64,000 nt of DNA from an uncultured delta proteobacterium (GCA_963828255.1 CAWHDZ010000040.1:192001-256000); one strand, 5' to 3'. Positions 20,285 through 31,642 are shown, numbered from the stretch's first letter. The notes: generated by a model not told the origin, from the letters alone. Translations and numbers: made by a program.

Positions 20285-20359
20285 AGGCCCGTAGCTCAGT
20301 GGTAGAGCACTACCTTGACACGGTAGGGGTCCGCGGTTCGATACCGCGCGGGCCTACCA
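20285..20359 (+). tRNA. tRNA-Val (GAC)
   Basis: Acceptor stem AGGCCCG/CGGGCCT, D-loop AGTGGTAGAG, anticodon arm CTACC-TTGACAC-GGTAG, GGTTCGA T-arm, encoded CCA. Confidence 0.97.
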
Positions 20360-20360
20360 A
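20315..20360 (+). repeat. attL: 46-bp direct repeat (3' half of tRNA-Val)
   Basis: Identical to 31597-31642. Confidence 0.95.
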
Positions 20361-20375
20361 ATAGTGGAAAGACTT

Positions 20376-20410
20376 AGGGCGCTTGGGTGGTTTTCCTGGC
20401 GCCCTTTTTC
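20376..20410 (+). terminator. Element-supplied terminator downstream of the tRNA
   Basis: agggcgc...gcgccct stem followed by a T-tract. Confidence 0.6.
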
Positions 20411-21412
20411 TTACCTTCCGGCGGTTACCGGCGCGGATAAACCCTCCAGGGAAGCCGTGTCCGGCACCCGAGGGGATGAGGGTCCGCCCGTGTTGGCGAA
20501 CCCTCGTCCCTTCCCCGGGCGCCCGATGCACCGGCAGCGTTGCCGGTGCCTCACTCGGGCCACCTCAGGAACGCGGCAACGGTCTCCTTGGTGTAGGGAT
20601 GCTCGGGGCCCGGGCCCTCTGCATGTCCCGGCGCATCTGTGCCGCGGCTCACTTGACCGTGGGTGATCCGGCCCGGGCCGGGGGATGTGGAGGCCGCGGC
20701 ACCGCACATCGCCCGTCCGAGGTGTAGGGCTTGCCGGACGACCTTGCGTCGCGCGACGCGAGCTAACCGAAGCCTCACGGCTCGGAACGGCGGGGTTGGG
20801 GCACGCCCGGGGGAGGGACCCCAAGGCGCAGCCCACACCACGCACCGGCAGGAGGAGTCCACCGGCCCGGCGGCCACGGGGTCCACCCCCCGAGGCCGCC
20901 GACTTCAGCACGCGCCGAGGGGTCGAGTCCGGTCGCCGAACTGCCTCAAGCCGATTCCAGAGGGCGAGCCAGGGAACTGAAGCGAAGCGGGCGGCCCGGT
21001 CGCGAGGCCCGCCCACCCACGCCGCTCAGTCCACCGGGACCATCGTCTGATTCACGGGGACCATCGGGTACGTTCCTGTAATCGCTAGCGATCCCGCCGA
21101 CGTCCACCGCCCGCCGGTGGGGCGAGGTGACGCCCGAGGTGACGGCAGGAACAGCCGGAAACGGCCCGTCCTTGCGTCGGGAGGGGCCGTGGGGTGTCAG
21201 GGGATGGGAGCCACCGGCGGTGGGCTCCTACGGGCGCCTAGCGCGTCTGCATGACCCCGACCCGGCGGCCCGGCCCACCTAGCGTGAAGGTCCGCCGCCA
21301 CGGGACGGTGTCCGCAGGGTCCGCATCATGCGGAGGCAGGGGCCTTCGGCCGCGCCCCGGCCACCGGCGCAGTCTTCGCTGGTTTGGATCCGCCCCGGTA
21401 TGATGCCGCCCA

Positions 21413-29995: not shown

Positions 29996-31347
29996 GACCG
30001 CACCGCCTTCGGGTGCGCGACGACGTCCGCGCCCTTGCCGGTGACGAGGTGCATCACGTGGGCGTCCCACCTCGCCAGCGCGTCCCGACGTTCGTCGAGG
30101 TAGTCGTGCGTGTCGTAGATCGCGACGATGCGCCCGAGGCTGTGACCGAGGCATGCCTCGGCGACGTGCGGCGCGACCCCGAGCGCGGCGAGGCCCGTGC
30201 GGACCGTCCTCCGAAGATCGTGCGGCGTCGGCCTCTCGCCCTTGAAGGTGAGGGCAGGGGACTCGCCCTCGAAGAGGCGGCGCATGGAGTGATTCAGACT
30301 CTTGTCGGTCAGCGCCTTGCCCGCGCCAGCGAAGGACGCGAGGACGTACCGGGAGTCGATGCTGTCGGCGAGCGCCTTCAACTCGCGGAAGATGGCGAGC
30401 GCGGTCGGCGGCAGCGGGATGCGGAGCGGCTTCGCCGCCCTGGCGGCACGGATGGTCAGCTTCCTATGCTCGGCCGGGATCGTCCACATCGGCCTGCGGT
30501 CGGCCTCGGGCTTCGGCTGGCCGTTGGGCAGCACGTCGTCGAAGTTGACCTCGGGCCACTCGGCGAGGAGTAGCTCGCCGGACCTCACCCCGAGCAAGAG
30601 CAGGAGGCGCAGGGCGTTTTTGACCGTGGGCGTGCGGCTGTTGCCGAGCGCCGTCCAGAATGCCGGGATCTCGTCGGCCGACAGCACGCGGTCGCAGACG
30701 TTGTGGACGACTCCCAGGGCCCCCGCGTCGAGCGGCTCGGCAGGGTTCACGACGATGTCGCCGCGGCCCTGCGCGAAGCGGAACAACTGCCCGACGACTT
30801 GGAGCACGCGACCGGCGTGCGTCGCCGCGCCCCGGTTCACCACGCCATCGACGAGGCGGCGCACGTCCGGGGTGGTGATTGAAGCGACGGGGCGGCCCCC
30901 GAGCACGGGGAGGACGTCGCGCTTGAGCACGTCGTCCACGACCTCGGGGCGGCGGCGGCGGCGGGCGATGTACGGGCGGAATGCCTCCGCGAGGTCGCGC
31001 ACCGTGAGCGCGCCCTCGGCGAGGTGGGCGGGCTTCGCGCGGGGCGGGTTCCACTCGGCGACGAGGGCGTCGAGGGTGCCCGCCTTGTGCGCCGCCTTCG
31101 CCTTGTCGAGGCGAGCGCGCGCCTGATTCACGCTGACGTGCCCGGCGCGGGGCTTCGGCGACCACCGGCCGATGGTGATCCACTTCACCCGGCCGTCGAC
31201 CTTGACGCCCCATCGAAAGACGCGGACGCCGCTCGCGGTGACGCGCAGGCGCAGCCCGGGCGCGCCATCGTCGGTGTGCTCGCCGGGCGGCAAGGTTGCG
31301 ACCAACTTGTCGGAGAGTGCTACTGCGGTAGTCTCGGTGTCAGCCAT
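29992..31347 (-). CDS. int: Tyrosine recombinase/integrase (P4-like, with N-terminal arm-binding domain)
   Basis: PGLRLRVTASGVRVF arm domain, GVRSGELL (R), PHDLRRT (HxxR), LGH, IYDTHDY (Y); GGGAGG RBS. Confidence 0.95.
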   Translation of the reverse strand: MADTETTAVALSDKLVATLPPGEHTDDGAPGLRLRVTASGVRVFRWGVKVDGRVKWITIGRWSPKPRAGHVSVNQARARLDKAKAAHKAGTLDALVAEWNPPRAKPAHLAEGALTVRDLAEAFRPYIARRRRRPEVVDDVLKRDVLPVLGGRPVASITTPDVRRLVDGVVNRGAATHAGRVLQVVGQLFRFAQGRGDIVVNPAEPLDAGALGVVHNVCDRVLSADEIPAFWTALGNSRTPTVKNALRLLLLLGVRSGELLLAEWPEVNFDDVLPNGQPKPEADRRPMWTIPAEHRKLTIRAARAAKPLRIPLPPTALAIFRELKALADSIDSRYVLASFAGAGKALTDKSLNHSMRRLFEGESPALTFKGERPTPHDLRRTVRTGLAALGVAPHVAEACLGHSLGRIVAIYDTHDYLDERRDALARWDAHVMHLVTGKGADVVAHPKAVRS

Positions 31348-31413
31348 GGCGACCCTCCCGTGGTCGTTCCTGGTCAGGGCCTCGGGGCGGTTGGCGCCGC
31401 CCCGGGGTCCGTC

Positions 31414-31458
31414 TGGTTTACCTGCGGCATGCCCGGCGACAGGTGGTTTACCTGCGGC
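31414..31458. repeat. 15-bp direct repeat pair, putative integrase arm-type sites
   Basis: tggtttacctgcggc at 31414 and 31444. Confidence 0.6.
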
Positions 31459-31596
31459 CGTCCGCAGGGAAACTTTCGATGGGTGATGGCATGGTCGGGC
31501 ACGCAGAGGCATTATCGCAGGAAACCAGCTTCCCGCAAGCGTTCCGTGAGAAATCGTGGAGGAGAGTGCCGCACCGTGCCCGGGCACTTTTTCAAG

Positions 31597-31642
31597 TTGA
31601 CACGGTAGGGGTCCGCGGTTCGATACCGCGCGGGCCTACCAA
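31597..31642 (+). repeat. attR: duplicated 3' half of tRNA-Val
   Basis: 46-bp identity with 20315-20360. Confidence 0.95.

Follow-up and report, generated by a model that had tools for sequence, protein, structure and literature searches.

The window, a stretch of 64,000 nucleotides of DNA from an uncultured delta proteobacterium, holds an island of 11.3 kb in a tRNA-Val(GAC) gene (20285..20359, plus strand; ARAGORN and Rfam RF00005), the integration target, which remains intact. The island is bounded by a direct repeat of 46 bp whose two copies are 100% identical. The attL core (20315..20360, plus strand) extends from the anticodon loop to the 3' end of the tRNA, and the attR core (31597..31642, plus strand) is the displaced 3' end of the tRNA, followed by a host terminator at 31649-31676. 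The repeat and the tRNA predictions bear out the 46-bp attL/attR pair in tRNA-Val that had been reported from the sequence-only reading. In the congeners with a contiguous pgsA-tRNA-thrS region, a single att copy is present in 7/7, and in none of these seven do the integrase, helicase, TerS, TerL or restriction-modification (R-M) protein of the island have a match between the tRNA and thrS. Since the congener sites carry one att copy and no island genes, the 11.3 kb represent an insertion, and the island thus holds the integrase and the att-bounded chromosomal insertion typical of phage-inducible chromosomal islands (PICIs). Behind the tRNA, 1.05 kb (20361..21412) hold no confident gene, only two long ORFs without a Pfam match, and this stretch has no match in the relatives described below. 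At another locus (L219; G022:C78:150-1834), a related integrase (50%) lies beside an att core 91% identical, upstream of thrS; judging by this arrangement, integration at this tRNA-Val site also occurs in another genus.

From attR inward, the genes on the minus strand follow the order described earlier, and the stop/start overlaps are confirmed for the integrase gene and the second ORF, xis and the Cys/His ORF, the Cys/His ORF and the helicase gene, and terS and terL. The tyrosine integrase (29992..31347, minus strand; 451 aa) is intact and shows a P4-like domain set (PF13356+PF22022+PF00589; phrog_1, E=1.5e-50). It is followed by an ORF of 242 aa (29267..29995, minus strand), a probable regulator with a weak C-terminal HTH (HTH_28, E=0.06) which has just 4 relatives among 1.84 billion representatives. 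Next lies the gene for an excisionase/AlpA-like DNA-binding protein of 80 aa (28917..29159, minus strand; phrog_1553, E=3e-4; phrog_66, E=0.003). The name alpA given to it previously agrees with these weak PHROG excisionase matches (E=3e-4 to 3e-3) and finds no backing in the AlpA model of Pfam, which is unmatched. The Cys/His ORF (28711..28920, minus strand; 69 aa) has a 49% homologue in another island of the same genome (contig C24), and precedes the gene for an AAA_25 (RepA-like) helicase of 493 aa (27233..28714, minus strand; PF13481, E=3e-24; phrog_239/906). Pfam and PHROG scans of this copy of the island detected no primase domain. Between the helicase gene and terS, a short-repeat array (27054..27275), a probable origin or set of iterons, contains 10 copies of CCGGAG in 222 bp, a number reached by 0/200 shuffles, so that the iteron array proposed for this position exceeds chance. 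According to 6-mer counts, repeat arrays occupy the equivalent position in 5/9 relatives tested.

The next two genes encode the terminase. The probable small subunit TerS (26560..27048, minus strand; 162 aa) is DUF5681-like, and its gene overlaps the start of terL. Its matches are weak (DUF5681, E=7e-5, below the cut-off; phrog_2538 TerS, E=0.003), it is placed in DUF5681 clusters of the Atlas (0.95), and its fold weakly matches DUF5681 and TerS proteins (E 0.03-0.1). The assignment as terS therefore stands on concordant sequence, Atlas and fold evidence plus position, though not on a strong domain match, and the small terminase expected of a PICI is present on the same weak but concordant evidence. 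The large subunit TerL (25745..26563, minus strand) is of the Terminase_6N/6C type. In a frameshift-aware alignment, its residues 1-283, readable with 18 frameshifts, cover 26563-25745 and match the homologue P0018 at 94%; by tblastn it is 38% identical to an annotated phage TerL. Both matches confirm the earlier call of terL. Its homologues carry PF03237+PF17289, and the annotation 'DNA-packaging protein' appears among its tblastn matches.

Running convergently from the other end, a type IIG (MmeI-like) restriction endonuclease-methyltransferase gene (21413..24745, plus strand) is confirmed, as previously proposed, by PADLOC (PDLC03627, E=5e-285) and by the Pfam domains MmeI_N, hel and Mtase. 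The endonuclease, N6-methyltransferase and specificity domains are fused in one chain, as in type IIG enzymes, and the protein shares with MmeI-like type IIG/IIL enzymes the MmeI_N, helicase spacer and MTase domains, the NPPF motif and the PADLOC REase_MTase_IIG assignment; it is unremarkable within its family, which is very large (7954 matches). The GC content of the gene is 0.61, versus 0.69 in host genes. Its frame is open to 23641 and is then broken by error-like indels; in a frameshift-aware alignment, the homologue P0122 (1136 aa) can be followed to its final residue, at 24745, and whereas the first 2.2 kb are free of frameshifts, the last 1.33 kb contain 26. The enzyme may have anti-phage activity.

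The R-M gene and terL, whose frames are both broken in the assembly of this copy, flank an unreadable A-rich stretch (24746..25744) and align right up to it. The corruption of the centre noticed before is thereby confirmed, as this stretch is 40% A, includes a 184-bp run of 76% A and is one of the two sole patches below 40% GC in the 4.3-Mb assembly. The combination of dense indels and high identity, with indels rising towards the A-rich core, looks like a failing consensus of long reads and not like decay. The 999 unreadable bp must contain the C-terminal 173 codons of TerL, to which 519 bp are owed, and about 0.5 kb remains, which is too small for a portal or capsid gene if the junk has its true length. 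The caveat that head genes could be hidden in the centre thus shrinks to this remainder, on the same condition, without disappearing. As the exclusion of a head module is conditional on the length of the junk, the relatives have to decide.

A PHROG scan and tblastn revealed no gene for portal, capsid, tail or lysis in what is readable of the island, which bears out, for this part, the statement that none is visible. The PHROG scan of the window likewise yielded no head protease, head-tail adaptor/connector or HNH gene, and no capsid-morphogenesis gene, which is optional in PICIs, occurs in the readable part of the island. The head, tail and lysis modules of a complete prophage were not encountered in the 11.3 kb between the att sites. 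Portal and major capsid protein, both expected of capsid-forming PICIs (cf-PICIs), were not detected in the readable part of the window, 1.0 kb of this copy being unreadable, or in the seven complete relatives.

These seven relatives, of 13.8-17.4 kb, come from the same family (three) and from Proteobacteria (four), and carry TerL behind a TerS-like gene. The layout is therefore not confined to Myxococcota, the group named for the island in the sequence-only reading, a label that agrees with its gene content. Within the family, TerL matches with E<=1e-10 occur in 3/91 other genomes and close integrases in 5/91. One relative, G084:C145, is a circle of 15,962 bp with an 83-bp terminal overlap and a single tRNA-Pro att piece; its integrase, its equally placed xis/AlpA-like protein and its TerS match those of the island at 49%, 47% and 55%, and its TerL matches P0018 at 58%. 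Behind TerL, it carries a coiled-coil gene, then a small one, then genes for a tape-measure protein of 522 aa and a Dit-like protein, and 0 of its 34 scanned ORFs encodes a portal or capsid protein. The element in G074:C13 (14.6 kb) is closed by 49-bp att repeats at a tRNA-Met; a coiled-coil gene follows its terL, and beyond it lie a lone head-protease-like gene and cargo. The third (G027:C2; 13.8 kb) lies at a tRNA-Pro and has an integrase 50% identical to that of the island; its TerL is of another family and apparently shortened by a frameshift. Its cargo (L217:4988-7629) matches candidate defence systems (a PDC-M19 pair and a HEC-01-like ATPase).

A more distant scan covered at least 80 genome loci among the TerL matches listed. 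Among these, an integrase gene lies within 10 kb upstream in 5 and a tRNA within about 2.5 kb downstream in 3 more, and four loci are closed by att repeats of 47-64 bp, delimiting elements of 14.5-17.4 kb in a Xanthobacteraceae MAG (14.5 kb), a gammaproteobacterial MAG (17.4 kb) and two Bradyrhizobium genomes (16.2 and 15.5 kb), the att of the latter two being located 1.6-1.7 kb past the terL stop. Four further loci (L051, L086, L105 and L113) show the matching front half, with no att pair found. Some copies decay, since the TerL of G027 seems cut short and a transposase-like insertion interrupts terS in L051. A lone protease-like gene is present in both G074 and L105, and a coiled-coil gene past terL in several relatives, the likeness of which to Psu/Sid is a weak lead; it may encode a scaffold that sets capsid size, and the slack in this copy would be just enough for it.

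Several other observations concern these loci. Two congeners (L034:3-1357 and 14232-16045; L267; L268) also have the coiled-coil gene of G084, followed in one case by a small gene and a tape-measure gene and in the other by genes of baseplate-hub and spike-like type, which suggests a partial tail module that is mobile within the genus. The gammaproteobacterial island encodes a TerL extended at its C-terminus by about 200 aa (L104:9989-11887). Alphaproteobacterial chromosomal TerS-TerL pairs without an adjoining portal or integrase gene (L226, G428:C6:112500-117400; L057; L088) are probably GTA-related relics.

Following the proposal that homologues with intact terL should be inspected for the genes after it, the seven complete relatives were searched, and portal and major capsid genes went undetected. 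In a six-frame tblastn search, 84 portal-cluster and 53 capsid-cluster proteins had no match in these seven elements or in the window, and in PHROG and Pfam scans of the called genes of the complete relatives a portal or major capsid protein was never the best match. The tblastn set matched two controls and missed the G069 control, the third TerL match of the family, which belongs to a true prophage with a Mu-type portal; this portal was missed by the tblastn set and by PHROGs and is visible by Pfam only. For the distant loci, the PHROG scan covered 99/122 called genes, with a few more added, and returned no portal or major capsid; L043, L045 and L104 contain a few ORFs of at least 280 aa without informative annotation. 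As a control contrast, loci with at least 5 kb of sequence downstream of TerL were compared: among the matches listed, a portal-cluster ORF lies within 6 kb downstream in 42/46 viral loci with this TerL type and in 35/56 genome loci. Ten of the 21 genome exceptions among the matches listed are alphaproteobacterial clusters with long tail-like genes behind terL.

Walker A, Walker B and the acidic motifs of the nuclease are preserved intact in 10/10 aligned satellite-type TerLs, a set without G027. In eight proteobacterial TerL pairs, dN/dS ranges from 0.07 to 0.28, and G084 versus G074 gives 0.47, an estimate weakened by GC bias and distance; as judged by these ratios, the TerLs of the relatives show purifying selection. 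In TerL trees of 130 and 51 rows, P0018 is placed inside a 9-row clade (SH-aLRT 100) together with the portal-less G074, and G084 falls just outside (support 85-93). This clade includes 0 portal-bearing rows, with gene context known for 2/11 rows, both of which belong to the seven complete relatives. A second clade unites five alphaproteobacterial portal-less TerLs (support 99), joined by L104 and L113 in the first tree only. Since the portal-less TerLs fall into separate supported clades, several origins are likely, with the deep branches poorly supported. A C-terminal motif is shared by 7/9 of the closest proteins and G074, versus 3/55 portal-bearing TerLs, all of one portal group, and the protease-like gene of G074 matches genes of mostly that same group. 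This motif, observed post hoc among kin that are not independent, suggests only where to look for a helper.

Compared with known satellites, the island shares with SaPI-type PICIs, as described in the available text of PMC10085698, a tRNA-targeted tyrosine integrase, a putative AlpA/xis-like regulator, a replication gene with a probable origin, a probable TerS, a size of 10-17 kb, defence cargo and the absence of lysis genes. Its readable part differs from them in that neither a primase domain nor a capsid-morphogenesis gene was detected. A further difference is that described PICIs have no TerL of their own and rely on that of the helper for packaging (as outlined in 10.1101/2022.09.08.507074 and PMC9026076), whereas the island encodes one. 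The cf-PICI preprint, in the portion available, states that earlier satellites depend on a phage-encoded TerL (10.1101/2022.09.08.507074), and the cf-PICI EcCIEDL933 presented there resembles the island in encoding both TerS and TerL after a PICI-like left half. For SatelliteFinder, terL is a cf-PICI-specific core gene alongside head-tail genes; in the accessible part of that work TerL is not among the named forbidden genes, and islands like this one might be scored as type B PICIs (PMC10085698). The island is therefore PICI-like in its working, yet falls outside the PICI definition on account of TerL and outside the cf-PICI definition on account of the head genes, even though the TerS and TerL pair of the latter is present.

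Other satellites show partial likeness. The EPIPs of Mycolicibacterium, which are helper-dependent, have a similar size (about 11 kb) and a TerS, and their tape-measure gene also appears in the relatives G084, L049 and L105, though it was not seen in this copy; they possess a serine integrase, and TerL is not listed in the available text (PMC12822802), whereas the island has a tyrosine integrase and a TerL. PLE, P4, PICMI, VEIMEs and phiAH14b are described, in the sections available, as head-less integrated satellites using helper particles (PMC11417361, PMC11389934, PMC9618062, PMC4936722), a way of life resembling that proposed below for the island, and some VEIMEs carry TerS and R-M genes, as the island does (PMC9618062). 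Unlike the island, PLE has no TerL of its own (PMC11417361), the TerL of VEIMEs is presumed to derive from the helper (PMC9618062), and phiAH14b has no terminase gene (PMC4936722), according to the parts of these sources at hand. A satellite that has TerL and lacks portal and capsid was not found in the literature searched, which consists mostly of main texts outside subscription journals, so that the SatelliteFinder and VEIME tables may hold some unnamed; nor was one found in the available portions of the comparison literature, including 10.64898/2026.09.14.751636 and 10.1101/2025.02.15.638363.

According to these data, the island is probably, with moderate confidence, a PICI-like satellite whose own two-subunit terminase would load its DNA into procapsids made by a helper. 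The earlier proposal of a satellite that supplies a full packaging motor and borrows capsids is thus supported by the complete relatives, the borrowing itself being inferred. The gene-content class of the island is well supported by the comparisons above, and the packaging mechanism is a proposal. On helper infection, the integrase and the xis/AlpA-like protein would excise the island; the assembly of one relative, G084, is circular and has one att. The helicase and the repeat array would then replicate it, with a primase provided, in this copy, by the host or the helper. TerS would select the island's own pac site, and TerL would cut and pump the DNA, probably by headfuls, docking on the helper portal via its C-terminal end. 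The island would therefore depend on portal compatibility and not on the helper terminase. The TerL of lambda docks on the portal through its C-terminal domain (PMC9026076, in the part available), and by this token the helper range would hinge on the tail of TerL. The helper would supply heads, tails and lysis, and the type IIG R-M gene would be defence cargo. As to the helper, no match to PF04860, PF06074 or a second Terminase_6C was found in the genome carrying the island (99% complete).

In a broader version of this proposal, given a little better than an even chance, such elements would form a widespread satellite class of multiple origin, whose members come with a complete motor of their own and steal empty heads only. 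Helper range would be set by TerL-portal docking, and some members would add tape-measure, Dit-like or baseplate-hub genes reshaping the tail. Described satellites mimic the packaging site of the helper, redirect or replace its TerS, or build a whole head, and a TerL without portal and capsid is the combination missing among them. If the proposal is true, it would be the mirror image of capsid-forming PICIs: the motor-portal interface would be open to hijack across genomes, posing a testable packaging question, and TerL, a hallmark of complete phages, would mark many small islands that are at risk of being counted by tools among decayed prophages or type B PICIs. The relatives include cultured hosts (Bradyrhizobium nanningense CCBAU 53390, Bradyrhizobium sp. 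132 and Methylobacterium oryzae TC3-10), which makes the proposal testable at the bench.

Other explanations have been weighed against the loading of helper procapsids. It is unlikely that the terminase mainly interferes with the helper, occupying its portals or cutting its DNA, with the island packaged by the helper motor or spreading rarely. Satellites do target packaging in various ways, such as PLE Gpi and SaPI Ppi (PMC11417361, available text), defence cargo is common in such islands (the type IIG R-M gene here, a PDC-M19-like pair in G027), and the selection seen on TerL is compatible with any function; however, every complete element retains a TerS-like gene coupled to terL, the ATPase motifs as well as those of the nuclease have stayed intact, for which a mere blocker would have no use, and element sizes cluster at 13.8-17.4 kb. 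Quite unlikely, too, is that a cf-PICI-like or small-prophage head module was collapsed by the assembly into the junk of this copy. The length of the junk cannot be judged from sequence alone, the relatives vary past terL (tail-tape-measure, Dit-like, baseplate-hub and protease-like genes), and the sister TerL lineage includes the phage L129, with a portal-like gene, as judged by eye, just over 6 kb downstream. Against it, a portal, protease and capsid would take several kb versus the half kilobase free, the complete relatives of this layout have no portal, and neither the cf-PICI gene order nor HNH was seen.

Two readings are weaker still. Packaging of neighbouring host DNA by a terminase acting from the integrated island, in a lateral-transduction or GTA-like manner whose benefit maintains the terminase, is very unlikely. 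The TerL family includes GTA-like packaging proteins. Lateral transduction by PICIs has also been reported (PMC12829572, in the part available), but searches of the genome found no head or tail genes that could provide particles, and integrase, xis and origin have been kept, with one relative assembled as a circle. The least probable, and disfavoured, is a prophage remnant that has lost everything behind terL and carries the terminase genes as passengers. This TerL type is common in real prophages of the class (58/368 genomes matched), three of which were inspected and show portal-like and head genes, and the stray head-protease and tail genes of the relatives could be leftovers. Nevertheless, less than 5 kb separates the integrase gene from terL here, too short a distance to hold the early region of a phage, and the two att sites are perfect. 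In addition, the compact layout occurs in two phyla alongside different integrases, and the portal-less TerLs form supported clades of their own under purifying selection.

The genome carrying the island (G000; 40 contigs) contains other islands. A second one (L010; G000:C11:254400-263750), at a tRNA-Arg(CCT), encodes an integrase, an excisionase, a sigma-like protein and a primase-helicase, with an HTH gene at the terS position, a serine invertase and no TerL match. A third (L269; G000:C24:1-9000), at the start of a contig, holds a primase-helicase gene, a lambda-type TerS (phrog_57, E=3e-20), a 98-aa fragment of a fused head protein and the Cys/His ORF in common with the island studied here. 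A probable fourth (G000:C34:142600-154000) lies past a tRNA-Arg(ACG) and contains pieces of a helicase gene as well as a resolvase-like gene. Finally, contigs C4 and C37, as well as C1 and C11, carry the same gene blocks, in line with the 6.6% contamination of the assembly or with a strain mixture.
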